From: a virus
Length of the DNA stretch: 64,000 nt
Virus record (IMG/VR): IMGVR_UViG_3300037549_000096
Reading direction: 5' to 3' (one strand)
Shown here: positions 20,365-64,000 of the stretch, piece after piece
How the letters are laid out: each line of letters starts with the position of its first letter
How positions within the stretch are numbered: position 1 is the stretch's first letter
Notes under the pieces: model-generated
Seen by the model: the letters and a program-made list of their open reading frames with translations, nothing else
Told to the model about the DNA's origin: nothing
The model's database searches: none
Program-made: the position numbers and the translations under genes

Positions 20365-20506
20365 TTAACCTCCATTAATAAAGTAGGCTTAATTGCTTTA
20401 TGTTTTTTGTTACGAGGTTTTTTAGCATTAATAGAATGACCACCACAACAACATTTTTTCTTACTATGATTTTCTGGATCTTTACAATTAGATGAAATAG
20501 CTTTTT

Positions 20507-45075: not shown

Positions 45076-45087
45076 GGAGAGACTCTC

Positions 45088-47778: not shown

Positions 47779-47781
47779 ACA

Positions 47782-48822
47782 ATGGCTTATATTGTAAATA
47801 GCCCAACGTTTAGCGGGACTGTTACAAGTCTTGGGCCTATTTCGTTAGCGGCTTCCCAAGGTATAGTAGTTGCATCTGGCGCTCCAGGTGTGACTACTAA
47901 TACCTTATATCAAATTGCAGGAACGTTATATTTTAACGGTAATTCTGTTGGTGGTATTGGTGCTTCTTATAGTCAAACAATTGGTAATGGAGCTTTAACT
48001 TCTATTGTTGTTACTCATGGTTTGGGGACTACAGATATAAATGTAACTGTTTGGGAATTAGGTGGTAGTAAACGAAACGTAACTGCTGCTATTGAAATAC
48101 AAAATACTAGTTCTACTCAAATTACTTTAATATTTGCTACTGCTCCTGCTACTAATTCATTACGTGTAGATATTACACCTTTAGGTACTTCTGGTAGTTA
48201 TACGTTAACAGATGACACGGCAACAAATGCTACTTATTACCCAGTAGTAGCTACGGCTTCTGGTGGTTCTACTTTAAAAACTTCATCAACTAAGTTAAGT
48301 TATAATCCATCTACTGGAAATCTCGTATCCACAAGTCATAATAGTGTAGTTATTACTCCACCTGCCACTACTGCTACTTTAACTTTAGCAAATAACTCTT
48401 CTTTAATTACTTCTGGAGCTTATTCTACTACTCTTACGGTTACGGGTACAACTACTTTAACTTTACCTACTAGTGGCACTCTCGCTACTACTTCACAAAT
48501 ACAAGGTGTTACAACTGTAAGTTTTGCTTCTACGATTAATCTAGATTTAACTACTATTCCAGGTCCAGTAGCTAGAATAACTTTAACAGGAACATGTACT
48601 ATAAATATCACTAATGGATCTGATGGTCAAAAAGTATTATTAGAATTACTTCAAAATGGAACGGGAACATACGTGGTTACATTAGGAACTGGTTGGGCTT
48701 ACGGGACTGATATTACAAGTTATACTAATACATTAACAGCCAGTAAGCGAGATATTTTAGGATTAGAATATAATTCATCACTTTCAAAAGCTATGTTAAT
48801 CGCTGTAGCTCACGGATATTAA
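47782..48822 (+). CDS. tail fibre protein
   Basis: T/G/S-rich; THGLGTTD; modules shared with 49502..52870. Confidence 0.75.
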   Translation: MAYIVNSPTFSGTVTSLGPISLAASQGIVVASGAPGVTTNTLYQIAGTLYFNGNSVGGIGASYSQTIGNGALTSIVVTHGLGTTDINVTVWELGGSKRNVTAAIEIQNTSSTQITLIFATAPATNSLRVDITPLGTSGSYTLTDDTATNATYYPVVATASGGSTLKTSSTKLSYNPSTGNLVSTSHNSVVITPPATTATLTLANNSSLITSGAYSTTLTVTGTTTLTLPTSGTLATTSQIQGVTTVSFASTINLDLTTIPGPVARITLTGTCTINITNGSDGQKVLLELLQNGTGTYVVTLGTGWAYGTDITSYTNTLTASKRDILGLEYNSSLSKAMLIAVAHGY

Positions 48823-48823
48823 T

Positions 48824-49492
48824 ATGGCGATAGCTCTTAGACATTCTTATATAACAAGATCAGTTAAAGTTCAATCTGGTGTAGCTGTTACTGTAGGTGA
48901 TATTATTGTAGTTTTTTTAGGTGGTGCTTCTTCAGTTAATATTACGTCAAGTTGTGCTGATAATTCTAGTGGTGGAACGAATACTTATACTAAACAAACA
49001 GGAACTTATGGATATTTGTTTACTAATGCAGGAATGAGTATTGATGTTTTTACCGCAAAAGCAAAAGCTACTGAAACTCTAACTATTACCGTTACTTCAA
49101 CATTACCTACAGCAGATGATATAGCTGTTCAAGTGATTTCTGGTGCAGCCGCTTCTTCTTATGTAGAAAGTATTGCTTATCAAGATTGTGTCTCTGGTGG
49201 AGGTACATCTTTTACTGGCGCTTCTATTACTACTACAAATGCTAATGATTATTTAGCTTGTTTTTGGGATGCAGATTATAACGGTGTTACCTGGACTGAA
49301 AACGGAGCAGGTTTTACTATTGATAGTCAATCGGTAACTGGAGTTAATAGTTATAGAGTAGTATCTTCTATAGGAACTTATGCAGATAAAGTAACAACAG
49401 GTGCTAATACTCAAGAACCCGCCTGTGTTATGTTAGCTATTAAAGCTGCTGGCTCTAGTTATGATGCTACAAAAATGTTAGCTTGTTTTTAA
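48824..49492 (+). CDS. tail-tip beta-sandwich protein
   Basis: VTVGDIIVV...TLTITVT...ITTTNANDYL pattern; within the fibre cluster. Confidence 0.55.
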   Translation: MAIALRHSYITRSVKVQSGVAVTVGDIIVVFLGGASSVNITSSCADNSSGGTNTYTKQTGTYGYLFTNAGMSIDVFTAKAKATETLTITVTSTLPTADDIAVQVISGAAASSYVESIAYQDCVSGGGTSFTGASITTTNANDYLACFWDADYNGVTWTENGAGFTIDSQSVTGVNSYRVVSSIGTYADKVTTGANTQEPACVMLAIKAAGSSYDATKMLACF

Positions 49493-49501
49493 GGTGTAAT
49501 T

Positions 49502-52500
49502 ATGGCTTTAGCGCAATTACAAGTATCTGATCCTATTTCTACTACCGGATTAACGATAGTAGGTACTACTACAGGAATTATTATACCTTCAGGCGTTCCT
49601 TCTAATGGCACAACTAATGCTTTATATCAAGTAAGTGGAAGTTTATATTTTAATGGTTCAGTTTTAGGCGGCGGTTCCGTAACTCTTACAGACGACAATT
49701 CAACAAATGCTACTTATTATCCAGTTATCGCTACTACGGCTGGCGGATCTACCTTAAAAACAAGTTCTACTAAAATAAGCTTTAATCCTTCAACTGGTAA
49801 TCTTGTAATTGGTGGACCTTTAACTTTAGCCGCTTCACAAGGTATTACTTTACCTAGTGGGGCTCCTGGAACTACTACTAATGCTTTATATAGTGTTAGT
49901 GGAACTTTATACTTTAACGGAACTGCTATTACTGGTGGTACTGGCTTGACTAACCCAATGACAACATTGGGAGATTTTATTTATGGTGGCGCTTCTGGTG
50001 CAGGAACTAGATTAGCTGGTAATATTACGGCTAGACAGCAAATGTTAGTTCAAATGGGAACTGGTACAGTTTCAGCGGCTCCATATTGGATTAATACACC
50101 TGAAATTATTATTACCGGAATGGACCCTACAGGCGCAACTGATTCGACTTCCGCTATCAATACAGCTATAACCGCACTACCCACAAATGGCGGAACATTA
50201 AGAATACCTGATCCTGGTCCAACTGGGTTTTATAGTTTTAATTTAGTATTAACTAAAACTGGTGTAACTATTATTGGTCCTGGAATGTCAAATTCAGGGA
50301 CTAATGGTGGTGGTGCGCCTGTCAGATATTGTCAAGCTTATAATACAACATTACCTGTAATACAAATAGGTAATGATACTTTATCTGTATATACTGATAG
50401 TTGTCATTTAAGAGATTTTTGTTTTTATGGTGGAAATAATAGTAGTCAATATGGATTAACTCTTACAGGCGGCTGTATAGCGGCTTGTTGTGAAGATATT
50501 CAAATTATTAATTTTAGTAATCAGGGCCTTACAATTAAAAATGAAGACGTTACAGAATGTGAATATAGCAAGTTTTATAATCTTCGTATTAACTCAAATA
50601 TAGCTGGTGCTGTTGGTTTAGCTATTTTAGATAAACATGTATCTGGTACTGGCTGGACTAGTGCTATAGATATTATTGGTTTTAGTATTCAGGCTGTTAG
50701 TTATCAAATACTTTGTGATTCAACTCAAGCTAATTTAACAAATGGTTATATCCAAAGTGGTGTTAGCGGTTCTAGCATCATGATTAAAAATTCATATTCT
50801 GGTGCTAATATTCAATATATTGGTTTAGTTTGTGAAAATGTTAATCAAGATGCTGTTGGAACTGGCAATTATAACGTTGGAACTACAGTTAATATTCCAA
50901 CTATAAACTCAACAAATCTACAAGAGTCATCTTGGATATCAGGAGACTTTAGTTCTGGTGGAAATACTTTTGTAGCTCCTATTACTACTACTGGAAGTAT
51001 TACTGGAGGTCTTAAAGCATTAACGGTAGCTAGTGCTACTGGTATTTATGCTGGCAAAGCTGTAATGGTGGTTGGAGCAGGCCCAAACTACCTTAACTTT
51101 GTTTCTTTTGTACAAAGTATTTCAGGAACTACGTTAACATTATTTGATGCCGCTAATTATACAGTAGCAGGAGCTACAGTATATGTAGGAGATATAACTG
51201 GTTTTGAAGCACATTCAATGTTTAATAATAGTGCTGGTTATGTAGGATTTTATCCATTAAATAAAGCTGGTATTAATACAAGTAATGCTCCTATTTTATA
51301 CCAAACAGCTTGTCCTCGGTTAACCGCAGATCAACCCGGTCAAATTGGTCCATGGAATCAATACGGTAATGTGATTTTTGAACAAGGATTATATAATTTT
51401 TATTTATTAGAACAAATAGGAACAGCCGCTACACCTACCTCTATTACTCAATCTGGTTATACTGTAACTGTAACAATGGGGTCTTATGCTGCTCCCGGCG
51501 ATATTGTTGTTATCGGAGGCGTAAAAGAACGTGGTATCAATGGAACTTGGGTAGTTCAAACCGTTCCTGGTGGTTATCAAAACAATTTTACATTTACATG
51601 TAATTTTAGCCAAACATTAGCGGGTGTTACAGGTGTCCCTTTAGTAACAATCTATAAATCTACTAGTTTTGGTGGATCACAAGATGCAGATAATCACCCT
51701 GGATCAATCAATATACCTAGTGGTGAAAAATCAGGTATCTGGTTTAGTAATCCTACTGTAGCTGGTGGTAATTTAGCTAAAACATTATATCAAGACGCTG
51801 GATCAAGTAATTTCTATTTAATGACTCCAGATGCTACTAATGGTATTTTAAATCTTTGGGCCGGGACCGCAATAACAACAGGACCAGTTTTAAATATAGG
51901 TGATTCAGGCGGAACTGTTTTTAGTGTAAGTGGATTAGGTCAAGTTACAGCTAATGGTGCTATTAACAAAGTAACGATTACAGCACCTACTACTTCAGCT
52001 ACATTAACTTTAATTACAGGATCTACTTTAGCTACAAGCACAGCGGCATCCTTAACATTAGCTCTTTCTACTGTAGCTACAACTGTAACTACAATTCCTT
52101 CCGGTACACATAGTTTAGCTATTACAGATGCAGCTAATACATTCTCTGGATTACAAACATTTAGTAATGGTATTACTGTAAATAACACTACTATAACTGC
52201 CCCACAATCTACAGCTTCTCTCGCGTCTTTAACTCTTCCTTTAGGTTCTGCGTCTTACACTGGTGGAACTTTAGGAACAATCTGGAATGATTATACTAGA
52301 CAGACTTTAGGAGTTAATGTAGGAGCTTCTGGTTATCCATTAGTCAATTATTGGTCTGGTGTGATTTGGACTAAAACCGCAGCAACTACTCTATCTAACT
52401 GGACAACCGCAGCTACTATATTAGGTGCCGCCGGTACAGGTGTAGGCACTCTTACTCTTCCTGCTAACTTCTTTGTTGTTGGTAAGACTATTAGATTAAC

Positions 52501-52870
52501 TCTAAAAGGTTATCTAGGTACTTATACTTCTGCTCCTACTTTAAACATACAAACGACACTTGGCGGATCTGCTGTATCATCTTCTGGTGCAGTTAGTTTA
52601 ACTACTGTAAGTATGAGTATTAGAGGTTGGTCTTTAGAGTATTTATTTACATGTAGAACAACTGGGTCATCTGGTACAGTTATTGGAACCGGAGAATTTA
52701 TATGGTCTAATAGTGCAACATTATTTAGTTGCATACCAGTATTATCATCTACTGCTACTACTATTAATACAACAACCGTACAAGCTATAGACGTTACTAT
52801 GGCTTGTTCATCTGCAAATGCTAGTAATACTGTAGTATGTACAGTAGCCACTGTAGAAGTATTAAACTAA
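49502..52870 (+). CDS. tail spike/fibre with a pectin-lyase-like beta-helix
   Basis: NPMTTLGDFIYGG; DPTGATDSTSAINTAI...GGTLRIP followed by beta-helix repeats. Confidence 0.8.
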   Translation: MALAQLQVSDPISTTGLTIVGTTTGIIIPSGVPSNGTTNALYQVSGSLYFNGSVLGGGSVTLTDDNSTNATYYPVIATTAGGSTLKTSSTKISFNPSTGNLVIGGPLTLAASQGITLPSGAPGTTTNALYSVSGTLYFNGTAITGGTGLTNPMTTLGDFIYGGASGAGTRLAGNITARQQMLVQMGTGTVSAAPYWINTPEIIITGMDPTGATDSTSAINTAITALPTNGGTLRIPDPGPTGFYSFNLVLTKTGVTIIGPGMSNSGTNGGGAPVRYCQAYNTTLPVIQIGNDTLSVYTDSCHLRDFCFYGGNNSSQYGLTLTGGCIAACCEDIQIINFSNQGLTIKNEDVTECEYSKFYNLRINSNIAGAVGLAILDKHVSGTGWTSAIDIIGFSIQAVSYQILCDSTQANLTNGYIQSGVSGSSIMIKNSYSGANIQYIGLVCENVNQDAVGTGNYNVGTTVNIPTINSTNLQESSWISGDFSSGGNTFVAPITTTGSITGGLKALTVASATGIYAGKAVMVVGAGPNYLNFVSFVQSISGTTLTLFDAANYTVAGATVYVGDITGFEAHSMFNNSAGYVGFYPLNKAGINTSNAPILYQTACPRLTADQPGQIGPWNQYGNVIFEQGLYNFYLLEQIGTAATPTSITQSGYTVTVTMGSYAAPGDIVVIGGVKERGINGTWVVQTVPGGYQNNFTFTCNFSQTLAGVTGVPLVTIYKSTSFGGSQDADNHPGSINIPSGEKSGIWFSNPTVAGGNLAKTLYQDAGSSNFYLMTPDATNGILNLWAGTAITTGPVLNIGDSGGTVFSVSGLGQVTANGAINKVTITAPTTSATLTLITGSTLATSTAASLTLALSTVATTVTTIPSGTHSLAITDAANTFSGLQTFSNGITVNNTTITAPQSTASLASLTLPLGSASYTGGTLGTIWNDYTRQTLGVNVGASGYPLVNYWSGVIWTKTAATTLSNWTTAATILGAAGTGVGTLTLPANFFVVGKTIRLTLKGYLGTYTSAPTLNIQTTLGGSAVSSSGAVSLTTVSMSIRGWSLEYLFTCRTTGSSGTVIGTGEFIWSNSATLFSCIPVLSSTATTINTTTVQAIDVTMACSSANASNTVVCTVATVEVLN

Positions 52871-52879
52871 AGGAATAAT

Positions 52880-53326
52880 ATGTCTCTTCAAGAATTACAA
52901 ACAATTCTAAATACTGCTGAAACTGCAATGAATTTAGCAGATCAAGCGCATTCAGAAGCTATTCAAGCATATAATTTAGCTTTAGCTAATTATAATACAG
53001 CATTAACTCAAGGTATTCAATCTGGTACTGTTGGTTCTATATCTTCTGTTACTACTTTACTTTTAACGGAAAGAAATGCTGGTATTCAATCAGTCGCTAC
53101 TTTTTTAAAAGCTAATCCTACCGCTACTCAGGCTCAAGTTATCGCTAATTGGACAGGTGCAGCTACAGTAGCTACAGGATTACCTTCTTTACTTCAAGAT
53201 CCGACTCAATTATGTAATATTTATACTAATAATTTACATCAATTAGGTGCAATTCCTGACACTACATGGCAATCATTTATTAATTGGATTATCGCAACTC
53301 CTATTGAAGAGATTTTAGCTGATTAG
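52880..53326 (+). CDS. helical hypothetical protein (possible fibre chaperone)
   Basis: follows the fibre genes; AAGGA RBS. Confidence 0.6.
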   Translation: MSLQELQTILNTAETAMNLADQAHSEAIQAYNLALANYNTALTQGIQSGTVGSISSVTTLLLTERNAGIQSVATFLKANPTATQAQVIANWTGAATVATGLPSLLQDPTQLCNIYTNNLHQLGAIPDTTWQSFINWIIATPIEEILAD

Positions 53327-53334
53327 ATTTTTAT

Positions 53335-53363
53335 TTGACAAACGTGTATACATGTGATAAGAT
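53335..53363 (+). promoter_or_regulatory. sigma70-type promoter
   Basis: TTGACA-17nt-TAAGAT with TGn extension. Confidence 0.65.
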
Positions 53364-53425
53364 ATACTTCTCAACTCAGTAGTATCAACTACTGTCAACC
53401 ATAACCCACGTTCAACGGAGTTAAC

Positions 53426-53725
53426 GTGAAAATCGACTTTATGCAAGAACTTAAAGACTTTGCCGGGGAACCTCTTCAGTTACAGAAAGACGGACCCAAT
53501 CTTACACTCAAGGAAGCTATTACTATCTCTATTAGATCAGCATTACAGGAAGACGCTCATGCGCCTCTTGCTGATAAGATCGCTTTAGATCGTATTGGCG
53601 AACTGGTTTATCAAGATGGTGGAGAAATTGATACTGGTCAAGCAACAATCATTAAAGAACGTATCGCTAAGGTGTTTACTGCGCCTGCTGTAAGTGGGGC
53701 TGTAAAGAGAGCTATCGAAGGTTAA
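53426..53725 (+). CDS. hypothetical protein
   Basis: GGAG RBS, GTG start. Confidence 0.7.
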   Translation: MKIDFMQELKDFAGEPLQLQKDGPNLTLKEAITISIRSALQEDAHAPLADKIALDRIGELVYQDGGEIDTGQATIIKERIAKVFTAPAVSGAVKRAIEG

Positions 53726-53746
53726 GAATTAAATACAATGAAAACG

Positions 53747-53774
53747 AAAAAGGGAAACTTCGGTTTCCTTTTTT
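53747..53774 (+). terminator. intrinsic terminator with a cUUCGg loop
   Basis: aaaaagggaaac-ttcg-gtttcc-tttttt. Confidence 0.85.
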
Positions 53775-53845
53775 CATTTTAGTTGCCAAACTTCTATTTT
53801 TCGTGTTAAGATACTAATACACTGTTCATCAAAGGAGAACACTCT

Positions 53846-54322
53846 ATGTCAATCGCCGGAACACAACACTTCTCTCAAACAGAAGTAGAACACAGTGATT
53901 ATGCAATAGAGCATAACATTGATAATACACTTCCTGAAGAATTAGAAGGAAACGCACAAAGACAATGTGAATTCTTGGAAGAACTTCGATCCTTACTTTC
54001 TGGTCATTATGGTCAGGATGTAAAGATTTTTACTTCTAGTTTCTATCGTGGTCCTAAACTTAATCATGCTATTGGTGGCGTTGAAACTTCACAGCATATG
54101 AAGGGTCAAGCTACTGACTTACATACGAGCGTTGGAACATTAGATGAAGTTTTTGAATTTATCGAAGAATCAGATCTTCAGTTTGATCAATTAATTGAAG
54201 AATCAGATAAAGAAGGTCATAGATGGATTCATATTAGTACTCCTGATGATGGTGTTGAACCTCGTCGTGAAGTATTAAAAGGTGAAAAAGGACAAAGACT
54301 CACAAGAGTCGCATTAGGATAA
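53846..54322 (+). CDS. peptidase M15 family endolysin
   Basis: SSFYR.PKLN.AIGG..TSQHMKGQATD...FDQLI.E...WIHIS. Confidence 0.9.
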   Translation: MSIAGTQHFSQTEVEHSDYAIEHNIDNTLPEELEGNAQRQCEFLEELRSLLSGHYGQDVKIFTSSFYRGPKLNHAIGGVETSQHMKGQATDLHTSVGTLDEVFEFIEESDLQFDQLIEESDKEGHRWIHISTPDDGVEPRREVLKGEKGQRLTRVALG

Positions 54323-54323
54323 T

Positions 54324-55268
54324 ATGATAATCAAACTTGCATTTGATCCTTTAACTATTGGTGCTGGTTTAGCTTTAGCTAAAGGTATTCCTACAGCTAT
54401 TGGTGCTGCAATTGGTAATCAAATGCATGATATTCCTCATTTTATTTCTTCTAAATCTAATAGATTTGGTAAATTTATACAACGAAGTGTAATCGCTGAT
54501 TCGATTATAGCGGCAAAGAAAGGTACAGAAGGTAAAATTTATGCAAATCGTAAATTAGGGCCTACTGCTTTCTTTGCCGGTATTCCAGGTCTTAATTTAG
54601 GCGGCGCTCCACAAGAAGGTAAATCTATTGCTGTAATGGAAGCGAATTTACTTGGCGCTAATATTCCTGGTCTAAAACATGCTTTTAAAGGTAATAAATT
54701 AAAAGTTAATCGTATTAAGGGCGCATTAGGTTTTGCTAGAGGTATTGATAGAAGTGCTGGTGCTGCTCAAATAGTTATTCCTACTGGAATGGGTATTAAA
54801 GGTTTTAATGACGAATATAAACGAAGTGGTGATTTTAAAGCCGCAAGTAAAAAAGGTTTAATCGGAGCCGCTACAGGTGGTGTCATTGCTGCTGGCTTAG
54901 AAATTCCTCGTAGATTAGCCTCTACTGGTTCTAAACTTCATAATACATTATCAAAAGATAATGGTTATGGATATAAACTTTTAGAAGAAGCTGCTGTTCA
55001 TGCTGAAAAATCTATGAATCGTCCTAAATTATTAAATTATTCACATCATTTTTATGCAACTCCTGAAGAAAATCTTAAAGGTATTACAGGTAAAGTATTT
55101 GGTAATAATTGGCAACGGTTATTAGGGCAGAAACGAGCTAAAGGTTATGATCCTATTAAGGGTTATGACTATGGCGAAACAAGTGAAGCTGGTCCTATTT
55201 CTTCTACTATTGATAAACTAGATCATTTAAAAAGAAAAATAGAACGAACAATAAAGAAACCATTCTAA
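54324..55268 (+). CDS. MIIKLA-family basic glycine-zipper protein
   Basis: MIIKLAF; GLIGAATGGVIAAG; K/R-rich. Confidence 0.8.
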   Translation: MIIKLAFDPLTIGAGLALAKGIPTAIGAAIGNQMHDIPHFISSKSNRFGKFIQRSVIADSIIAAKKGTEGKIYANRKLGPTAFFAGIPGLNLGGAPQEGKSIAVMEANLLGANIPGLKHAFKGNKLKVNRIKGALGFARGIDRSAGAAQIVIPTGMGIKGFNDEYKRSGDFKAASKKGLIGAATGGVIAAGLEIPRRLASTGSKLHNTLSKDNGYGYKLLEEAAVHAEKSMNRPKLLNYSHHFYATPEENLKGITGKVFGNNWQRLLGQKRAKGYDPIKGYDYGETSEAGPISSTIDKLDHLKRKIERTIKKPF

Positions 55269-55732
55269 TGATTATTAAATTAGCTGAATCAACTCTAGAA
55301 AAAGCCAAACACGAACTCGACTTGATCGGGATGACAGCTAATAATAAAGATGAAATGAACAAGGATATGCGTAAGCATATTCTTGAAATTATCAAAACTT
55401 TTAGTAAGCAGGGACATTCAGGATTTTCAGCTAATTATGCAATTGGTATTTTATCTAAACTTTTACAGCATAAACCTTTAAGTCCATTAACAGGTAACGA
55501 TAATGAATGGGAAGATGTATCCGTAATGTCTCAGTGTAAAAACAAAGATAAATGGTATCAGAATAAACGTGCATCAAATGTATTTAAAGAAATTAAGAAT
55601 GGCAAAGTTTTTACTTATGACATATATGGTAAAAGTTTTGTAGATAAAGATGGCATTTCTTATTCTAATAAGAATAGTAAAGTCAAAGTTAAATTTCCTT
55701 ATACACCTAAAACCGAAGTCATAAAGGAGTAA
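55268..55732 (+). CDS. MIIKLA-tagged conserved phage protein
   Basis: MIIKLAE followed by AKHEL..FSKQGHSGFSA..PLSPLTG.D.EW..QNKR. Confidence 0.8.
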   Translation: MIIKLAESTLEKAKHELDLIGMTANNKDEMNKDMRKHILEIIKTFSKQGHSGFSANYAIGILSKLLQHKPLSPLTGNDNEWEDVSVMSQCKNKDKWYQNKRASNVFKEIKNGKVFTYDIYGKSFVDKDGISYSNKNSKVKVKFPYTPKTEVIKE

Positions 55733-55734
55733 TT

Positions 55735-55914
55735 ATGTTTAAACTCATTTTAACTCATGCTTTAGCTACTGGTGTTGGTGGTGGTTTAGGTATGTTACTT
55801 AAATCATGGCTTTCAAGAAAATCTACCGCTTTATTAGCTGAATTAAAAACTAAGGCTAAGATTGAAGGCAATGACGCTAAGGATGCTATCTTAGTAAAAC
55901 TCAAAAATCTATGA
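55735..55914 (+). CDS. small single-TM protein (59 aa)
   Basis: AAGGAG RBS; MFKLILTHALATGVGGGLGMLL; not in the track. Confidence 0.6.
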   Translation: MFKLILTHALATGVGGGLGMLLKSWLSRKSTALLAELKTKAKIEGNDAKDAILVKLKNL

Positions 55915-56219
55915 TTTGTTTATCTATTTTATTATCTGTAACACATATTTATCCTTCTATGCCTATTATTCCTTTGCCTAATATTAAATTAGATATTAAT
56001 CTTAATGAATTAGTGTTATTTATTGAAAAAAATATGAAAGATAAAGAAATTAGCATTGAAGTAGAAGATGAAAATTTTAATGAAGTTTATTCAAGTACAT
56101 TTTTAAAACTAATTATTAGAACTTCAACTTATTTTGAAAATCAAGGTTATACAGTAATGATAACTGATACAAAAAATCCTCATATTATTTCTTTTACTAT
56201 TTCTAAAAAGAACAAATGA
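55911..56219 (+). CDS. hypothetical protein
   Basis: ATGA-coupled ORF. Confidence 0.6.
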   Translation: MICLSILLSVTHIYPSMPIIPLPNIKLDINLNELVLFIEKNMKDKEISIEVEDENFNEVYSSTFLKLIIRTSTYFENQGYTVMITDTKNPHIISFTISKKNK

Positions 56220-56884
56220 ATAACATCGAACTATATCAACAATCTCAATCACCACAACTCGCTCAATTACTCTTGGACGAAAATAGAGATACTATAAATA
56301 AACATGTAAATAAATGGAAAGGTGTTCTTCCTGATATAGTTATTCAAAAACATGCAGAAAAATATGCTTTAGATGCTTTTAAGACATATGATCCATCTAA
56401 AGGTGCATCACTTCATACACATATGTTTAATCATCTTAGTAAATTATCACGATTAAATTATGACAATCAGAATGTAGTTAAGATTCCTGAACATCAGATT
56501 CTTCAAATTCGTAATTACCATGATTCAGTTGCTCATTTAACTGATCAATTAGGATATGCGCCAAGTCATGAAGAAATTGCTGATCATATGATACTTCCAG
56601 TATCACATGTAAAACGATTATCTGAAAATGTTAATCGAAAGGATTATACTTATGATTCAGATCATGAAGATTTGCAGCAAAGAGATATCGAATCTAATCC
56701 TAAATCTCTTTATATTCAAGATGTTTTTAGCCATCTTAACAAAAAACAAAAACAACAATTCCAAGATCTTACTGGATTTAATGGTGCGCCGATTTTAAAA
56801 CCTAGTGAGTTTGGTAAGAAACATAACATGAAACCGTTTGAAGTTTCTAGAGTGAAAATGACGTTAGCTAAGAAGTTTAAATAG
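56216..56884 (+). CDS. phage sigma70-like RNA polymerase sigma factor
   Basis: ALDAFKTYDPSKGASLHTHM (region 2); VKIPEH; LTDQLGYAPSHEEIADHM (region 3). Confidence 0.8.
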   Translation: MNNIELYQQSQSPQLAQLLLDENRDTINKHVNKWKGVLPDIVIQKHAEKYALDAFKTYDPSKGASLHTHMFNHLSKLSRLNYDNQNVVKIPEHQILQIRNYHDSVAHLTDQLGYAPSHEEIADHMILPVSHVKRLSENVNRKDYTYDSDHEDLQQRDIESNPKSLYIQDVFSHLNKKQKQQFQDLTGFNGAPILKPSEFGKKHNMKPFEVSRVKMTLAKKFK

Positions 56885-56893
56885 GAGTAAATA

Positions 56894-57289
56894 ATGGCTA
56901 CTACCTTTAATAAATCGATTCAACCTCTTGATGGTAACTGGATTGTTACTTTTAGTATTGCCTCTAAAGATCCAGACGATTACACCTTGGCTCAACAATA
57001 TGGTGATCTTGATTTAGAGTTTGCTAATAAGTATGTTGATCCTCTTGATAATACTTTTTCTTTTACAATTCTTAAATCTAATAGATCAATTTGGTCGGAT
57101 ATATTATTAAACAAACTTCCTAATATTGAATATAAGTTTGTCTTTGATGATGCGTCCATCGTATCGGCCACTCGATATCGACAAGCTGTGATTTATGCCA
57201 ATACTGTACAAGCGGCATTGATAGCGGCTCTTACCGTGTTGAGAGCTATGCCAGCTACTCCCCCTGTAACTTCTACTTTTACGGTGTAA
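56894..57289 (+). CDS. hypothetical (probably structural) protein
   Basis: AGGAG RBS; ORF track. Confidence 0.65.
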   Translation: MATTFNKSIQPLDGNWIVTFSIASKDPDDYTLAQQYGDLDLEFANKYVDPLDNTFSFTILKSNRSIWSDILLNKLPNIEYKFVFDDASIVSATRYRQAVIYANTVQAALIAALTVLRAMPATPPVTSTFTV

Positions 57290-57291
57290 AC

Positions 57292-57498
57292 ATGATTGCT
57301 AAATTAGCAGGACGACAACAGTACAAACCTTTAGCTGATTTAGCTAAAGAAATGGCAAAAGAAACTTCGCCACTTCCTAAAGTAGAACCTTCTTCTATTA
57401 TTAAGAATTTTAAAAACAAGAAAGCTTTAGCTATTGGTGCCGGTGTTGCTGCTTTAGGTGGTGGTGCTTTAGCTTATCTTAAGAGTAAGAAGAAATGA
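57292..57498 (+). CDS. MIIKLA-family protein (MIAKLAG) with a C-terminal glycine zipper
   Basis: ALAIGAGVAALGGGALAYL. Confidence 0.75.
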   Translation: MIAKLAGRQQYKPLADLAKEMAKETSPLPKVEPSSIIKNFKNKKALAIGAGVAALGGGALAYLKSKKK

Positions 57499-57746
57499 TT
57501 ATTAAATTAGCTAATCAATGTAATCAATGCGAACAACATCGAGTACAATTAGCCGGTGTTGGTGTAGCTGCATTAGGTGGAACTAAACCTTCTATGATAG
57601 CTAAAAAATTTAGTTATGGATGGTCGCCAGCTTATCAAGATACATTAAATCTTAGAAAAAAGTATGATAAGTTATTAAAGTCTTTACCTGAAAAAGAACA
57701 ATTAAAACATATGGACCCATCTGTTAGAAAGGCTTTAAGGAAATGA
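57495..57746 (+). CDS. MIIKLA-family protein
   Basis: MIIKLAN; QLAG.GVAALGG. Confidence 0.75.
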   Translation: MIIKLANQCNQCEQHRVQLAGVGVAALGGTKPSMIAKKFSYGWSPAYQDTLNLRKKYDKLLKSLPEKEQLKHMDPSVRKALRK

Positions 57747-57892
57747 TTATTAAACTAGCTCTCTTAGCTATTAAGAAAGTTCCTAAAGCGTTACAAAACC
57801 AAGAGCAAGCTCTTGATTTTGCAAACAAAGTAGTTCACGTTTCAAGACCCGATCCTGGTAAAATGAAATCACCAATTAGGATTATTGATTAA
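57743..57892 (+). CDS. MIIKLA-family protein (49 aa)
   Basis: MIIKLALLAIKKVPK...; ATGA- and TAATG-coupled on both sides; not in the track. Confidence 0.7.
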   Translation: MIIKLALLAIKKVPKALQNQEQALDFANKVVHVSRPDPGKMKSPIRIID

Positions 57893-58311
57893 TGGCTTAT
57901 GCTGATTTTTCAGAAATCTATGTAGCTTGGCTCCAGAGTCAGTTAGATTATATTGATGGTCAACCTTATTCTAATTTATCAGTTAGCATAGATCCGACTT
58001 ATGAAATTACAGCATTTAAAAATTCAGTTGATGTAAATCAACAGAAAATCTTTCATAATGCCGCAGATGATCAAGTTGGCTATTTACGTTGTATGAAAGA
58101 GATTGCAAAAAATCCTTCAGATTATTTAAATGAATATAAAGAATATCTTAAATTTGAAATGAATGTAGTTCAATCTAGTTCTCAAAAAATAGAAAACACT
58201 CACAATGTTCAAGATAATTCTAATAAGACTACTTTAAACTTTTACGCTACATTCTCTCCAGATATTTTAGCTCATTTAGCTACATATAACCCAATGAGGA
58301 TATTTAGTTGA
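57892..58311 (+). CDS. hypothetical structural protein
   Basis: ORF track; precedes the baseplate genes. Confidence 0.6.
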   Translation: MAYADFSEIYVAWLQSQLDYIDGQPYSNLSVSIDPTYEITAFKNSVDVNQQKIFHNAADDQVGYLRCMKEIAKNPSDYLNEYKEYLKFEMNVVQSSSQKIENTHNVQDNSNKTTLNFYATFSPDILAHLATYNPMRIFS

Positions 58312-58733
58312 GAGAAATAGAAACAGCTTTATTAGATCCGGTTACAGGATTATGCACATTCGCTTTAACGAATATGCGTCCTGTTTCTGGAATTAAATTA
58401 TTAGTAGCTAAAGTTTCTAAAAAGATACTTTCCAGTACCTTCGCTACAAGTATTTTTACTTATTATGGATTAGATTTACAAAAAATTCCTTATTACGCTA
58501 TTTCTAATACTGATACTGATACTATCAAAACAATGTTAAGTGCTAGTTTAGAAAATATTGCTGTTTCTATTCAAGATAATACTTCTAACTTAGCTTTAGC
58601 TACAGAACAATTAGCTTCTCTGACTTTACAAGACTTGTTATACGATAGTACGAATAATCAAATTGTTATTAAGATTTTAATTACACCAGTTAAAGGTGAT
58701 TCTCAATCATTATTATTCCCATTGGCGGTTTAA
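58308..58733 (+). CDS. baseplate wedge gp25-like protein
   Basis: SGIKLLV.KV.K.IL.S...YG..L...EQLASL...IVIKI.I pattern; directly precedes the J-like gene. Confidence 0.55.
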   Translation: MREIETALLDPVTGLCTFALTNMRPVSGIKLLVAKVSKKILSSTFATSIFTYYGLDLQKIPYYAISNTDTDTIKTMLSASLENIAVSIQDNTSNLALATEQLASLTLQDLLYDSTNNQIVIKILITPVKGDSQSLLFPLAV

Positions 58734-60478
58734 TGGATGCTTCAGACGTTCGACAATTTTTTGTAGCTTCTTTACAGAATAGTCAAGATCTTTCAGATCT
58801 TGATACTTCTCCAGATTCTAATTTTGATGATCTGGTTATTAAACCACATATGTTATTTTCTCAAGCTCTATTTAATTATATCGCAGATTATAAAGCTACG
58901 ATTTCATTAGGTAATTTAGCTAATATGACAATGCCGCAATTAACGGCAATTGCTTCACGATTATTAGTTACTCCAAATACAGGGTCTACATTATCTCTAC
59001 AAATTGCTATTTTCTTAAACGCTAACAATAATACTCCATTACAAGTATTACAAAGCGATTCATTTAGAACATCAGACGGAACTACATTTAATCCTATTCA
59101 AACATATGTATTTGTACCAACCAACTTACCTACAGTTACGATTAATGGTCAAACTTTATATGTAGCTTCTATTACGACTGTTTCACAAAACGCTTCTAAA
59201 CAAATTACAGCAAATCAAATCACATCTTGGACAATTAATCATCCAGCATTAGTTAATGTTACTAATCTTGGTTCTTCTCCTGCGCCTGTATTAGCCGATA
59301 CTAATGCTCAATTAATTACCAAGATGCAAAATGCTGGATTCACAAGGAATTTAATTAATAGACCATCTATTTTCAATGCATTGACCAAAGCATTTCCGAA
59401 TAATATGATTTCTGTTTATTCGGTAGGTTATGGTGATCCTGAAATGCAACGTGATATTGTTCCTGCTGGACAAGCGTGGAGTTTTCATGTTGGGGGAACG
59501 ATTGATGTTTATGTGAACACAGCTTTACAGCCATGTATTATTACTGCGACTGGTTCTAGAATTGCAGGTAATATATATCGTGTCATTCTGAAACGATATA
59601 AAGGTTATGATGTTAATGCTACAGATAATTCTAATCCTCATCCTGGCTTATTATATGGATGGGAGTTAGTTGAATTACCTGATAACTCTATGCCTGGTAT
59701 TTCGACGCTTCCTGTATTGCCATTCTTATATATTGATTTTACAAGTAGAACTTTAAGTATTACTGATAATGAGAGCCAGCTTTCATTTAATCAAGGTATT
59801 ATTCAAACTGATAGTACTACTTTAGATTACAAAGTTAATATAGTTAATCTTAATTCTGCAAATTTAAGATTTTCAATCTATGAACAAATTGAATTAGACT
59901 TCTATTTATCACAAGATGTTGGTGATAGTCCTACCTTTACTATTCCATACTTTACAATGAATTCATTAGAAGATGTTCAAGACTATATTTCTGAACCACA
60001 AACTATATTTCATTGTGCTGATACTTTAATTAAATCATTTATTCCGATTGAAATTCGTGATTTTAGTATTAAATATGATAAAAACTATTCAGTAGACGTT
60101 GCAGGTTTAACGATATCGCTTTGCAATATCATTAATAACTGGAATAGTCCTGAACATATTCGTATGTCTACACTCTTGTCAAATGTTCCGGTTCCTGTCA
60201 GAATAGGAGAGTTAGGCGAAGATTTTCCGATCAATGCAGATTTGATTACACCTGACAATTATATTACGGCTGTTCCTTCTCAATTAGATAGTGATGTTTA
60301 TGCAACATTACCAACTTACGTAGAAGTCGTACAACATAACATTGATGGTTCTGAATATCATTTTGTTACAACTGATCAAATTTGCTCAATTGAAAAACCT
60401 CAATTATCTTCGACTCGTAGAACTGTAAAATATTTCATTCAACCTGAGAATCTTCACTTTGTTCCATCATCTTGGTAG
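58733..60478 (+). CDS. baseplate J-like wedge protein
   Basis: F.DLVIKP; VTN...DTNAQL; VGYGDPEMQRD; HVGGTIDVYV. Confidence 0.7.
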   Translation: MDASDVRQFFVASLQNSQDLSDLDTSPDSNFDDLVIKPHMLFSQALFNYIADYKATISLGNLANMTMPQLTAIASRLLVTPNTGSTLSLQIAIFLNANNNTPLQVLQSDSFRTSDGTTFNPIQTYVFVPTNLPTVTINGQTLYVASITTVSQNASKQITANQITSWTINHPALVNVTNLGSSPAPVLADTNAQLITKMQNAGFTRNLINRPSIFNALTKAFPNNMISVYSVGYGDPEMQRDIVPAGQAWSFHVGGTIDVYVNTALQPCIITATGSRIAGNIYRVILKRYKGYDVNATDNSNPHPGLLYGWELVELPDNSMPGISTLPVLPFLYIDFTSRTLSITDNESQLSFNQGIIQTDSTTLDYKVNIVNLNSANLRFSIYEQIELDFYLSQDVGDSPTFTIPYFTMNSLEDVQDYISEPQTIFHCADTLIKSFIPIEIRDFSIKYDKNYSVDVAGLTISLCNIINNWNSPEHIRMSTLLSNVPVPVRIGELGEDFPINADLITPDNYITAVPSQLDSDVYATLPTYVEVVQHNIDGSEYHFVTTDQICSIEKPQLSSTRRTVKYFIQPENLHFVPSSW

Positions 60479-60486
60479 GTTAATTA

Positions 60487-60666
60487 ATGCCACCTATTAA
60501 ACGGTTTGATGAAAAGAATTTAACTCCCGTTAAGGAAACATCGGTTTCCTTTGGAGTAAAGAATCATGTTGTTAAAAATCCAAATACGAGTTTAACTGGT
60601 ATTAGTTATATCAAAAAAATCGCATCTTTCATAAATAATTCTGATTTATATAAAAAGGGGAAGTAA
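60487..60666 (+). CDS. small protein with an internal KKIA motif (59 aa)
   Basis: MPPIKRFDE...YIKKIASF; not in the track. Confidence 0.55.
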   Translation: MPPIKRFDEKNLTPVKETSVSFGVKNHVVKNPNTSLTGISYIKKIASFINNSDLYKKGK

Positions 60667-60667
60667 A

Positions 60668-61423
60668 ATGACTTTATCGGCTGAAGAAATCATCAAGGAA
60701 GCTGAGTTAGCTATTCAAGTTGAAGCTGGTAAAGCTTTAGAAAAGAAAGCCGGTGAAACAGTAATTGAAATTTTAGAACAACGTAAAAAAGATGGACTTG
60801 ATAAAGTAGCGGAAAATACTACTGTATCATTTGAAGGTACTGTAAGTGTTGAAGGTTTTAGTAAAGAAGCCGATGAAAAACCTAGTGATGTTGTAAGTAT
60901 TAAAAGTTTTGATAAAGTAGCTTTAGATTTAACCGCTTTAAAAACTCCTTTAATGGCGTTAGGTAAAGGTATTTTAGCTAATCAAGGTGTTCGTAATATA
61001 GCAGTTGGTAGTGCGATTGGTGCTGCTGGTGGTGCGTTAGCTAATAAGAACGATAGAATGGGTGGTGCTATTAAAGGTGGTTTATTAGGCGGTATTGGTG
61101 GTGCTGCTGTTAGTGCTGGAACTAGACCTTTAGCTAAATCAATTCCTGGTGCTTTAGGTAATGCTAAAATAGTAGCACCTACACCGATTAGACAGTTTAG
61201 TAATACAATGGGTTTAACTAATCCTGCTACATTTAAACAAACAGATCGTATTGCTAAAACTATAATTCCTAATAAAGCTGAACCTATTACTCATAGTGGC
61301 CCTACTATCGGTCAAGGACTTCAAGATAGTCTTAAAAATTTTAAAACTAGACTATTCGGACCCAAACCTTCTGGTCAAGTTTTTAACCCTAATTTTGCTA
61401 GTGAAGCTATGAGTGGTAAATGA
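60668..61423 (+). CDS. virion internal/scaffold-like protein with repeated KxA motifs and a glycine zipper
   Basis: IIKEAE, LEKKAG, LDKVAE, FSKEAD, FDKVAL in an acidic N-terminus, then GSAIGAAGG...GGLLGGIGGAA. Confidence 0.7.
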   Translation: MTLSAEEIIKEAELAIQVEAGKALEKKAGETVIEILEQRKKDGLDKVAENTTVSFEGTVSVEGFSKEADEKPSDVVSIKSFDKVALDLTALKTPLMALGKGILANQGVRNIAVGSAIGAAGGALANKNDRMGGAIKGGLLGGIGGAAVSAGTRPLAKSIPGALGNAKIVAPTPIRQFSNTMGLTNPATFKQTDRIAKTIIPNKAEPITHSGPTIGQGLQDSLKNFKTRLFGPKPSGQVFNPNFASEAMSGK

Positions 61424-61764
61424 TTATTAAACTCGCCACTTTTACCGCAGAAGAAGAAACCCAGCTTCGTAAGAAGTTGGCAGATCCTTCTCAAATAAAA
61501 TCTAAACAAGTTCTACTTAATTACGCTCATCCCGCTACTATTTTAGGTGGTGCTACAGGTGGTTTTATTGGTTCTGAAGTAGGTGATAAGGTATTTGGTG
61601 GTAAGCATATGACTGAAATGTTACATACTCCATTAGGTAAGACTGGACCTGGAATTACTTCTAGATTTGCGAAGAATCTCTTTCGTGGTGGTTTAGGCGC
61701 TGTAGGTGCTGGTATTGGCGCTTATGGAGTGCAAAAGTTTAGAGAACACAAGGAATCAAAATGA
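61420..61764 (+). CDS. MIIKLA-family glycine-zipper protein
   Basis: MIIKLAT; GGATGGFIG, GGLGAVGAGIG. Confidence 0.8.
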   Translation: MIIKLATFTAEEETQLRKKLADPSQIKSKQVLLNYAHPATILGGATGGFIGSEVGDKVFGGKHMTEMLHTPLGKTGPGITSRFAKNLFRGGLGAVGAGIGAYGVQKFREHKESK

Positions 61765-61985
61765 TTATTAAACTAGCTGAAATCTTCAATATCCCATTAA
61801 AACAACAAAATGAATCAGCTAAACCTAACTTTACTCCAATTCATTTAACTAATGAAGTAAAGAAATTCCATCCTGCTTCCACTACTTCTAACAACCCTTT
61901 AATTCAAAACGCCAAGAAAGAAGCTTGTTCTGGTGTTCCGAAAACTAAGTGGTGGAAGAAGATGGAAAAAGCACAATTGAACTAA
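61761..61985 (+). CDS. MIIKLA-family protein
   Basis: MIIKLAE. Confidence 0.75.
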   Translation: MIIKLAEIFNIPLKQQNESAKPNFTPIHLTNEVKKFHPASTTSNNPLIQNAKKEACSGVPKTKWWKKMEKAQLN

Positions 61986-61994
61986 AGGGATAAT

Positions 61995-62300
61995 ATGATT
62001 ATTAAACTAGCCAGTCTTACTAAAGATGAAAAATTTCAGATTAGAAACACTTTATCAGAAGAAGAAAACAAAATGCCTAAAGCTCTTAAACGTGCGCTTT
62101 GGGGTGGTTTATTAACTACCCCTATTGGGGTTGTTCCCGGTGCTGTTGTAGGTGGTCTTTCTGGTCATTTTGCAGACAAGAAACGTAAGGCTCAATTTAA
62201 GGAATTACGTAGAGCTTTATCTAATAATGAAATGCATCCTGAAGCTTCTCATATTTTAAAATCATATAGTAAAGAATATAAAAAATCTTTAAAGAAATAA
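61995..62300 (+). CDS. MIIKLA-family glycine-zipper protein
   Basis: MIIKLAS; GVVPGAVVGGLSG. Confidence 0.8.
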   Translation: MIIKLASLTKDEKFQIRNTLSEEENKMPKALKRALWGGLLTTPIGVVPGAVVGGLSGHFADKKRKAQFKELRRALSNNEMHPEASHILKSYSKEYKKSLKK

Positions 62301-62302
62301 TC

Positions 62303-63592
62303 ATGATCATTAAACTAGCTACATTCAAACAAGCTATTCGTCCTCTTATGAGAAATAAGGGAATAGTTGGTCTACATATTTTAAACGGTACAGTTATTGG
62401 TGCTTCTATTGGTAATAATAGTAATAAAGAAAAACATCTTTATGGTTTTAAACGTAATAAAAATGGTTCTTTTTATCGTAAACCTGAAACGAATACAGGA
62501 AAACGTATTTTAACAGGTGCGATTATTGGCGCATTTGGCGGATTGGGTACTGGAGCATTTACAGCTAAATCTATGGATGGTAGTACAAAAATGTATAGAG
62601 ATTATGCACGACAATTTAAACAACAATTTAAGAGTGGTTATCATACGCCTCCACCTAGAAAACCTAAAACAGCTACTACAGATGATATTAAATCATTCTT
62701 TAAAACTCACGCAAATATTACTCATACTAATATCAAAACTAAAAAAGAAGCAACTAATCATTATCGTAATGCAGCACGAATTCATCATCCAGACGCAGGT
62801 GGTAAAGTAGAAAACTTTCAGAAATTAGAAACTGATTGGAGTAAAGTTAAAACCTCACCTTGGTTTGAAAAGTTAGCTGCTATCATAAACAGAACACGAA
62901 ATAATTCAATAGAACATGATATAGCTCAAATACAATATGGTGGTTATTCTATCTCTGGCAATGGTAATATTAATGTTATGAATCCTAGAAGAAAATTTAA
63001 TAGATTAATGAGTCCTTTTCATAGTGTTTTTGATAATTCTCAAGCAGTTAAAGATGGTCATAAAATTGGTGTATTACACGAATTGTCAGAACGTAAATAT
63101 TTTAAACAACTAGAAAAAGATAAAAATATTAATCCTCGTTCATTCGTTGGCGCTCAAATTCAACGTAAGTTTATGGGAACACCTACAGGCGCTCATGTTA
63201 GTTTAGCTGTTTTAGGTGAAGAAAGTAATAACTTAAATAGAATTACTAGTGAAAAAGTAAAAGAACGTGTAAAGAAAATGCGTTACATGACTGGTGAAAA
63301 TGATTTACTTAAAAATATTACTGGAAAAACTTATGGTAAACATATTTTTACGCCTGAAGATTTAGAAAAATTACATAATACTTCTACAAAAGCTAAATCT
63401 CCGTTTAAAGTAGGATCTAAATCTTTAATTGGTGGTGTAGCAGGTGCAGTTTTAGCTCCAATGTTAGTTAAAAAGAAATATAAAGCCGAAGATGTTCAAG
63501 GTAAGAGAATTGGTGCTGCTATTTTAGGTGGTGTTGCAGGTGCTAGTGCCGAGAAATTCATTAGAACAAATATACTTAAGCTACATAAGTAG
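62303..63592 (+). CDS. MIIKLA-family multidomain protein (glycine zipper, J-domain-like region, internal EKLA, HExxE region, glycine zipper)
   Basis: YRNAARIHHPDAGG..ENFQKL; WFEKLAA; VLHELSE. Confidence 0.8.
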   Translation: MIIKLATFKQAIRPLMRNKGIVGLHILNGTVIGASIGNNSNKEKHLYGFKRNKNGSFYRKPETNTGKRILTGAIIGAFGGLGTGAFTAKSMDGSTKMYRDYARQFKQQFKSGYHTPPPRKPKTATTDDIKSFFKTHANITHTNIKTKKEATNHYRNAARIHHPDAGGKVENFQKLETDWSKVKTSPWFEKLAAIINRTRNNSIEHDIAQIQYGGYSISGNGNINVMNPRRKFNRLMSPFHSVFDNSQAVKDGHKIGVLHELSERKYFKQLEKDKNINPRSFVGAQIQRKFMGTPTGAHVSLAVLGEESNNLNRITSEKVKERVKKMRYMTGENDLLKNITGKTYGKHIFTPEDLEKLHNTSTKAKSPFKVGSKSLIGGVAGAVLAPMLVKKKYKAEDVQGKRIGAAILGGVAGASAEKFIRTNILKLHK

Positions 63593-63600
63593 GAGATATC

Positions 63601-63900
63601 ATGTTAGGCAAACTTGCCGCAGTAAAAATTACTAAAACTCAATACAATGAGTTAGATTTATCTTGGCGATTAAAAGAAAATAAAATCAAAGATGAATTAA
63701 AACCGTGTATTGCTAAACTTTTAGAATCACTTTCTAATAAGAAAGAGTTTTCTGTTAGCATTGGTAATGAAACGTTTAAAATTGATCCTAGTAAATTTTA
63801 TCTTTCTGATTTACGAATGGAAACTCGCAATAATTCTATGTTACGTCAAGACCATAATATAACTACAGGTGATTGCGCTAAAGCTGAAAGTTGTGGTTAA
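63601..63900 (+). CDS. MIIKLA-family variant (MLGKLAA)
   Basis: AGGAG RBS; KLA at residues 4-6. Confidence 0.7.
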   Translation: MLGKLAAVKITKTQYNELDLSWRLKENKIKDELKPCIAKLLESLSNKKEFSVSIGNETFKIDPSKFYLSDLRMETRNNSMLRQDHNITTGDCAKAESCG

Positions 63901-63903
63901 TAT

Positions 63904-64000
63904 ATGATTATTAAATTAGCGCAAAATGTACATGAAAAAATTATGAAAGAATTTGGTTTTAATATTAAACCAAAACATTTTGAAGGTATGGGTGAATTAG
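63904..64000 (+). CDS. MIIKLA-family protein, partial
   Basis: MIIKLAQNVHEKIMKEFG..., open to the window end. Confidence 0.75.
   Translation, partial: MIIKLAQNVHEKIMKEFGFNIKPKHFEGMGEL

Follow-up and report, generated by a model that had tools for sequence, protein, structure and literature searches.

In staphylococcal phage 80alpha, the N-termini of the capsid and scaffold proteins mimic ribosomal protein L27 and are cut by the host enzyme Prp, and herpesvirus proteases cut after alanine, often before serine, at (V/L/I)-x-A followed by S. The processing motif of phiKZ-type phages is (A/S/G)-x-E, cut after glutamate. A single prohead protease of phages of the phiKZ/SPN3US type (gp175/gp245) processes many head-internal and ejection proteins at a short motif that is present in multiple copies in their propeptides (PMC10052503). 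The closest described system is the capsid-targeting sequence (CTS) of phage T4, a 10-residue N-terminal peptide that gp21 cleaves off and that by itself brings foreign proteins into the head (PMC9026906). Here we describe a six-residue N-terminal peptide, mostly MIIKLA, that heads unrelated proteins encoded in a 64,000-nucleotide stretch (the window) of an uncultured phage genome, IMG/VR record IMGVR_UViG_3300037549_000096 (168,567 bp, about 32% G+C); the window is the minus strand of G000:C1:44228-108227. With a probability of roughly 60%, we consider this peptide to be a minimal capsid-loading and cleavage tag of the T4 CTS kind with a new, alanine-directed cut code, whose cleavage, packaging and delivery we infer.

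An earlier note on this DNA had pointed to 12 tagged starts in the window, and all 12 are present with the peptides it reported: nine open reading frames (ORFs) begin with exactly MIIKLA and the remaining three with MIVKLA, MIAKLA and MLGKLA (Table 1). Genome-wide scanning for M-[I/L]-[I/V/A/G]-K-[L/I]-A starts extended the set to 17 ORFs, all on the + strand of the window. Three of the additional ORFs (all MIIKLA) lie directly past the window end. The other two, MLVKIA (146 aa) and MIVKLA (63 aa), stand immediately upstream of the gene for the prohead protease and, in the orientation of the window, some 48 kb ahead of its first base. Compared with these 17, the number expected from amino-acid composition is 0.009 among 274 ORFs, and on the opposite strand, whose genes lack systematic annotation, no ORF of real length carries the tag. 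The protein bodies are unrelated, as the note had held: blastp among the tagged proteins after removal of the tag gave no significant similarity except in Gly-rich low-complexity stretches. Paralogy as the source of the common start was ruled out by the same comparison, which found nothing alike beyond the tag. The shared tag is real and lies far beyond chance. Pfam and PHROGs searches of the tagged proteins returned a confident family only for one of them, a homologue of the anti-defense protein Tad3; none of 50,697 phage records matched the 10-kb region by megablast, and a literature search on the tag string retrieved no relevant paper. The glycine zippers ascribed to many of these proteins were borne out in part, with zipper-like segments in 8 of the 17, whereas all matches to Pfam zipper families remained below threshold.

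Synonymous codon variation had also been taken to mean that selection acts on the peptide and not on the DNA, and comparison with relatives upholds most of this. Orthologues of the tagged 314-aa protein and of the Tad3 homologue encoded next to it, on contigs L028, L029, L036, L037, L038 and L039, keep M[IL][IV]KL[A/T] with differing codons, and as many as five of the six codons differ synonymously between orthologous tags, with the peptide retained. In relatives, only A, S, T or G is found as the final residue of the tag. Of 18 homologues found for the 314-aa protein, at 40-71% identity and on contigs as long as 166 kb, 17 are tagged. Fourteen tagged ORFs were found in L028, a syntenic 20-kb stretch of a 127.7-kb contig, 11 in syntenic clusters of the 166-kb contig L039, and one to three on the shorter contigs L036, L037 and L038. 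The L028 ORF syntenic with the ORF at 57292 begins MLAKLG, and the orthologues of the 49-aa protein begin MLIKLA (L028) and MIIKLA (L039). The exact DNA motif of the tag, scanned in IMG/VR, matched 16 contigs once each, which is chance level, and was repeated on no other contig. Judged by these comparisons, the tag is selected as a peptide. The claim needs amending for the copies within the genome, whose codons mostly follow genome usage with the exception of Leu5: 7 of 16 tags encode this residue by CTA, a codon with 7% usage in the genome as a whole, which creates CTAG (e.g., at 57755-57757 and 61773-61775), and identical 17-mers recur. The CTA excess and the recurring 17-mers imply that copies within the genome also share DNA-level ancestry or gene conversion.

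The tag pattern was absent from Salmonella phage Arash and Vibrio phage D69, and N-terminal sites over the parts examined were only chance-like. As both phages possess the protease and the internal motif described below, the expansion of the tag is specific to the present clade, and the alignments indicate that the tag was added, in this lineage, to proteins that are untagged elsewhere. The Tad3 gene occupies different slots in relatives, and cassettes may be exchanged at the tag. GIY-YIG endonuclease genes stand between tagged genes in two relatives (L037:1114-2064 and L039:11165-12007), and a gene for a 529-aa HNH/Mom-like endonuclease lies at the edge of the head module (L025:808-2397); such mobile endonucleases may help to shuffle the cassettes.

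The ORF at 55268 matched the Tad3 model PF25185 with an E-value of 1.2e-35 and 122.3 bits (cut-off 27), its residues 10-135 spanning profile positions 4-118 of 119, i.e., the full domain. By this match the protein is a full-length member of the Tad3 family, the type I Thoeris ThsB inhibitor family. Tad3 binds ThsB and blocks its catalytic site through N-terminal helices (review PMC13728456). A homologue search found 423 proteins; among the matches listed, the 11 closest (52-73% identity) are tagged with M[IL][IV]KL[A/T] and the other 109 are untagged. In the alignment the tag overhangs the N-termini of untagged Tad3 proteins by about 5 residues, and the predicted cut after Ala6 would leave an N-terminus like that of the untagged homologues. 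The net charge of tagged Tad3 proteins ranges from +6 to +12, compared with a mean of -11 in untagged ones (standard deviation 4, n = 109). Tad3 acts in the cytoplasm, which fits injected cargo without proving it. A predicted complex of the protease core with the Tad3 homologue scored 0.26 against a mark of 0.32 and counts neither way. In L036 the tag also heads a protein of the 2H/2'-5' RNA-ligase family (2H phosphoesterase), and the same add-on pattern was seen in that family. Tagged Tad3 stands beside tagged 2H phosphoesterase in L036:1-5767 and in a 62-kb ENA contig with P0028. A weak radical-SAM gene, a papain-like peptidase gene and an untagged Acb2/Tad1-hairpin gene belong to the same L036 gene group, which looks like an anti-defense group in this relative. 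A BubE-domain gene is the left neighbor of Tad3 in L028 and L037.

The prohead protease, on which a cleavage tag depends in the proposal of the earlier note, was located in the head module, where the gene order (L025) is TerL, a 517-aa protein, an acidic 177-aa protein, the two tagged ORFs, a 522-aa protease, an acidic 171-aa protein and, further on, the 303-aa major capsid protein. The same order of head genes was found in L034 and in Arash. The protease candidate has 2,228 homologues in a representative library, and among cultured phages its family is confined to Arash, three Vibrio phages and Bacillus phage G. Its N-terminal 275 residues were modelled confidently (AF2 pLDDT 81.6; core residues 30-232), and the protease is fused to a C-terminal extension of about 290 residues. 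The best structural match of the model was T4 gp21 (5jbl; Z 10.1, root-mean-square deviation 2.9 A, 125 residues aligned), with herpesvirus proteases at Z 6.8-9.3 and MCE-domain proteins also at Z of about 7; Foldseek with the model gave no match at E <= 0.001, so that the fold assignment rests on a second look with VIA-align. Searches against PDB sequences with a single sequence or a profile returned nothing meaningful. On the strength of the model, the 522-aa protein is assigned as the prohead protease, with a gp21/assemblin fold. An alignment of 40 family members showed H110 and S163 to be invariant, making them the candidate catalytic His and Ser. K26/A28 and K233/A235 are at least 90% conserved among these 40 members and lie in low-confidence disordered linkers on either side of the core, at the places where auto-processing sites would be expected.

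The tag itself ends in a motif that, by sequence match, is enriched in scaffold-like, capsid and protease-flanking sequence. Internal K-x-A sites, anticipated by the earlier note, occur in the form hydrophobic-x-K-[LIVM]-A 18 times in five head-set proteins, where 1.22 were expected (about 15-fold). This was by far the most enriched of all residue combinations tested in this frame, which argues against a general helix periodicity; combinations containing Glu were not enriched in the head-set proteins. Six sites fall in the acidic 177-aa protein (p = 3e-5), and the capsid protein has I-E-K-T-A at residues 15-19, matched by V-E-K-V-A at residues 20-24 of its L034 homologue. Scaffold-like proteins of relatives are similarly rich in sites, with 7 in the 217-aa protein of L034 (0.28 expected), 4 in one of L035 (0.23 expected) and 6 in Arash gp220 (0.24 expected). 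A logo of 86 internal sites, chosen only on K-[LIVMT]-A, showed a hydrophobic residue at P5 in 85% and E, S, A or N at P1' in 73%, and matches tag positions 2-6. The N-terminal form in L034 is M-x-L-I-K-[I/A]-A; this shift by one codon implies that conservation concerns the site as such, irrespective of how far it stands from the start codon. A 302-aa protein encoded outside the window at G000:C1:137998-138906, on the strand opposite to the tagged genes, contains five hydrophobic-x-K-[LIV]-A sites (0.59 expected, p = 4e-4). It is likely to be a further virion protein that undergoes processing, with a gene remote from the head module.

Furthermore, the tagged proteins share a charge pattern. 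Most had been described as basic; in fact all 17 are net positive. In a greedy gene set, a positive net charge was shared by 13 of 13 tagged proteins, compared with 112 of 261 untagged ones (Fisher p = 2.6e-5), and in L039 all 11 tagged ORFs are positive, the untagged structural proteins being mostly acidic. The scaffold-like proteins carry net charges of -21 and -13, and the two tagged proteins beside the protease gene +21 and +7. In each of the untagged 251-aa and 517-aa proteins, an acidic N-terminal part bearing sites precedes a basic body. Basic cargo with an acidic, degradable core is the arrangement of T4. With the protease found, the internal sites enriched and the tag conserved as a peptide, the packaging and cleavage proposal of the earlier note gains support.

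Like the CTS of T4, which heads IPI, IPII, IPIII and the Alt propeptide, the tag is a short N-terminal peptide on unrelated, basic and rapidly changing proteins; it ends in a motif matching putative prohead-protease sites of scaffold and capsid proteins, and the protease fold is shared. T4 IPI* counters GmrSD, and an anti-defense function is likewise predicted among the putative cargo here, for the Tad3 homologue. Unlike the CTS, the tag has 6 instead of 10 residues, shows no sequence similarity to it and contains no Glu, so that homology to the T4 CTS was not found. The predicted cut falls after Ala in hydrophobic-x-K-[LIVT]-A, whereas the cut in T4 follows the Glu of L/I-x-E. The protease here is a member of a separate, uncharacterized family, and 17 genes are tagged compared with a handful in T4. 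The tag probably works as the T4 CTS does without being homologous to it, being shorter, using a Lys/Ala instead of a Glu code and serving far more genes.

The phiKZ type is approached in another feature, a virion-associated RNA polymerase lineage of the multisubunit type. Unlike the long and diverse propeptides of those phages, a fixed six-residue tag is used here, and long acidic propeptides occur only in the 251-aa and 517-aa proteins. An untagged ORF of 1,984 aa lies directly after the tagged cluster, beyond the window end (L026, G000:C1:33000-44400). In its L028 counterpart (17075-20477), a single polypeptide has the Pfam domains of both Rpb2 (beta) and Rpb1 (beta'), and by these domains the family is a fused two-barrel RNA polymerase. 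With 80alpha the present system shares a short common N-terminal leader on unrelated proteins and one protease, although removal of the leader is a prediction here; 80alpha relies on a host enzyme and mimicry of a host protein, whereas the motif here matches sites in and around the phage's own protease. Herpesvirus assemblin has the same fold, and its sites also flank the protease domain and lie in the scaffold. The codes differ, with K at P3 and an aliphatic residue at P2 here, and herpesviruses are not known to use theirs for cargo tagging. Gp19 of Bacillus phage G is a homologue of this protease, with K-[VTI]-A sites flanking its core, and in the 18.6 kb of phage G that were checked (L040, 8002-26601), K-[TVL]-[AS] sites were present within the first 10-25 residues of the head-region proteins gp13, gp9, gp10 and gp20. 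Phage G could serve as a cultured system for the alanine-directed cut code.

According to the capsid-loading and cleavage model, M-[I/L]-x-K-L-A would constitute a full recognition site of the protease (P5 hydrophobic, P3 Lys, P2 aliphatic, P1 Ala), placed at the extreme N-terminus of a changeable set of basic proteins. Late in infection, the positively charged tagged proteins would join a prohead core composed of the strongly acidic scaffold-like proteins and the protease fusion, with the tag as the address, probably aided by charge. The activated protease would then cut after Ala at the internal sites of the scaffold-like proteins, near the N-terminus of the capsid protein and at the flanks of its own core, and would strip the six-residue tag from the cargo. 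The clipped basic proteins would stay with the DNA and enter the next host along with it. For Tad3, clipping would restore the normal N-terminus of the family, and the inhibitor would be on hand ahead of all phage gene expression.

Several points weigh against this model. Most tagged genes lie outside the head module, in the part of the late region devoted to tail/baseplate and lysis. No capsid-targeting sequence tested so far is as short as six residues, and targeting may need additional features such as charge. The tagged 2H phosphoesterase of L036 has a net charge of -1, i.e., it is not basic. Both the tag and an N-terminal site are missing from the large fused RNA polymerase. In virion preparations of Arash, the RNA polymerase subunits, which are separate there, rank first in abundance (PMC10585845), so that proteins may also enter the particle by ways other than tagging. 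Co-expressing Tad3 late in infection could pay off even if the protein were not packaged. Part of the similarity between tags within the genome stems from DNA-level ancestry, as the CTA excess shows. Cleavage and packaging of the tagged proteins are predictions, and the tagged clade is known from metagenomes; the virion proteome table of Arash covers 116 proteins, with coverage values that are silent on N-terminal processing.

The motif might instead be a binding motif that docks scaffold-like proteins and cargo to the inner capsid, portal or protease, with the N-termini kept. Its recurrence in scaffold-like proteins, which must bind the shell, would suit such a role, and cleavage is a reading of the sequence. 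However, the restriction of the last tag position to A, S, T or G in relatives is that of a P1 residue, the sites flanking the protease core sit in disordered linkers at family-conserved positions like auto-processing sites, and the spacing of sites every 20-30 residues in the acidic scaffold-like proteins resembles the scaffold degradation of T4 and phiKZ-type phages; docking is therefore regarded as unlikely. We attach similarly little weight to cutting in the cytoplasm or at the membrane, by a phage or host protease, as a late maturation switch of proteins that are never packaged, e.g., glycine-zipper or lysis-related ones. Many tagged genes do adjoin the endolysin and tail genes, 8 of the 17 products are glycine-zipper-like, and a preprint reports activation of the defense system CBASS through proteolysis by phage proteases (PMC12991175). 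Nevertheless, loss of six residues is unlikely to switch an activity, and soluble cargo such as Tad3 is tagged too. The uniform basic charge, the inversion of Tad3 charge by about 20 units and the position of two tagged genes between the scaffold-like and protease genes all point to the head interior.

A signal for a host machine is considerably less probable, be it an N-terminal degron of the ClpX type or a substrate for a modifying enzyme as in radical-SAM-linked leader tags. Flynn et al. (2003) reportedly described a ClpX N-terminal degron class of the form hydrophobic-hydrophobic-basic-hydrophobic, which I-I-K-L resembles, and the weak radical-SAM gene of L036 lies beside tagged genes. Neither form accounts for the small residue 6 or for the motif in head proteins and around the protease core, and no radical-SAM gene was found near the tagged clusters of L028 or L039, or in Pfam and PHROG scans of 10 window genes around the cluster.

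Equally improbable is a nucleic-acid signal with the peptide as a by-product, whether it enhances translation initiation in coupled genes or provides a recombination 'handle' by which gene cassettes are shuffled. Many tags overlap the preceding stop codon (ATGA), several lack an obvious ribosome-binding site, the CTA over-use at Leu5 and the 17-mers suggest copying or gene conversion, and the cassette order varies between relatives, as with the Tad3 slots. These features are outweighed by the differing codons between genomes under a kept peptide, by Ile/Leu/Val swaps that alter first codon positions, by the one-codon displacement in L034, by the chance-level occurrence of the exact DNA motif elsewhere in IMG/VR and by the identical peptide motif inside head proteins; the tags may well recombine as a secondary consequence. 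Least credible of the alternatives is that the tag directs small phage membrane proteins to the membrane or into secretion. In some proteins it does run on into hydrophobic Gly/Ala-rich stretches, but in Tad3 and several others the residues next to it are polar or acidic, with no hydrophobic core and no Sec, Tat or lipoprotein signal-peptide architecture.

Returning to the capsid-loading and cleavage model, a more far-reaching version of it can be put forward only tentatively, and we would not bet on it at even odds. In a clade of 150-170-kb phages, a portable six-residue address together with positive supercharging might load interchangeable cargo (Tad3, 2H phosphoesterase) that is injected before expression begins and blocks Thoeris-like defenses, and the protease family of more than 2,000 members might use a new, herpesvirus-like, alanine-directed code, hydrophobic-x-K-[VILT]-A, in the head maturation of tailed phages. 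If the capsid-loading and cleavage model is correct, the capsid cargo of an uncultured phage lineage would become readable as a code and predictable from its genes, a cut specificity would be assigned to a large uncharacterized family of prohead proteases, and Tad3 would represent the first case of a signaling-defense inhibitor re-engineered by a tag and charge inversion for pre-made delivery. A loading tag of six residues would also be a compact tool for equipping phage heads with foreign proteins. Concrete test objects are available in phages G, Arash and Vibrio D69, which are in culture and encode members of this protease family.

Table 1. Tagged ORFs and neighboring genes in the window, with positions counted from its first base.
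Feature	Position	Strand	Remarks
Tagged ORF MIVKLA, 108 aa, basic, Gly-zipper-like segment	42659..42985	+	just upstream of tail/baseplate genes
M15 peptidase (endolysin), untagged	53846..54322	+	Pfam PF08291, E 4e-12; PHROG 894
Tagged ORF MIIKLA, 314 aa, net charge +24	54324..55268	+	
Tagged ORF MIIKLA, 154 aa, Tad3 family, net charge +8	55268..55732	+	PF25185
Sigma-factor-like protein, untagged, 222 aa	56216..56884	+	syntenic with Arash gp10 (annotation, gene order)
Tagged ORF MIAKLA, 68 aa, basic, Gly-zipper-like C-terminus	57292..57498	+	
Tagged ORF MIIKLA, 83 aa	57495..57746	+	start overlaps preceding stop (ATGA)
Tagged ORF MIIKLA, 49 aa	57743..57892	+	start overlaps preceding stop (ATGA)
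Acidic structural protein, untagged, 581 aa	58733..60478	+	tblastn against Arash gp13: 24% identity, E 3e-18
Untagged 251-aa protein, acidic N-terminal part, then basic Gly-zipper body	60668..61423	+	
Tagged ORF MIIKLA, 114 aa, Gly-zipper-like	61420..61764	+	
Tagged ORF MIIKLA, 74 aa	61761..61985	+	
Tagged ORF MIIKLA, 101 aa, Gly-zipper-like	61995..62300	+	
Tagged ORF MIIKLA, 429 aa, net charge +44, Gly-zipper segments	62303..63592	+	
Tagged ORF MLGKLA, 99 aa	63601..63900	+	
Tagged ORF MIIKLA, 62 aa in genome, runs off window	63904..64000	+	three MIIKLA ORFs follow

Two of the larger proteins in Table 1 contain sites beyond the N-terminus. The 251-aa protein has two internal motif sites in its acidic part, with predicted cuts after Ala48 and Ala85, and judged by these sites it is a 'long propeptide' version of the tag logic. 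In the 429-aa protein, residues 146-175 resemble a J domain, HPD motif included, at a sub-threshold level (Pfam DnaJ E 0.037; PHROG matches also weak), and an internal motif site begins right after this stretch, at residue 188; the protein may be a host-chaperone-hijacking cargo freed by a second cut.

The ATG at 42659 is preceded by AGGAG 7 nt on its 5' side. The endolysin gene is the conserved left neighbor of the tagged 314-aa gene, with the same order in L038 and L039. The AF2 model of the 314-aa protein (pLDDT 61.8) consists mostly of helices and is too poor for a fold search. An untagged 59-aa glycine-zipper, membrane-like protein at 55735-55914 begins MFKLIL, which resembles the start of the protease itself, MIKLIE, where K3 is invariant in the protease family; the two may represent a second, shorter N-terminal signature. 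The L037 orthologue of the 222-aa protein showed a weak Sigma70_r3 match. Arash gp13, the counterpart of the 581-aa protein, has been detected in virions by mass spectrometry (PMC10585845), and a search for related loci with the 581-aa protein as query found nothing. Elsewhere in the window, a 391-aa ORF at 36165-37340 matches only the N-terminal parts of ribonucleotide reductase (RNR), as judged from the RNR-II insertion domain and PHROG 367 (positions 35-371 of 701), which fits a split class II RNR.

The DNA of this phage comes from peat metagenomes. Near-identical contigs (at least 99%) of a peat metatranscriptome library, which stems from another study and another year, cover all of 44100-64000, one of them spanning 61583-64000; these matches are contigs of an RNA library and prove neither transcription nor its levels. 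The phage thus recurs in the peat habitat.

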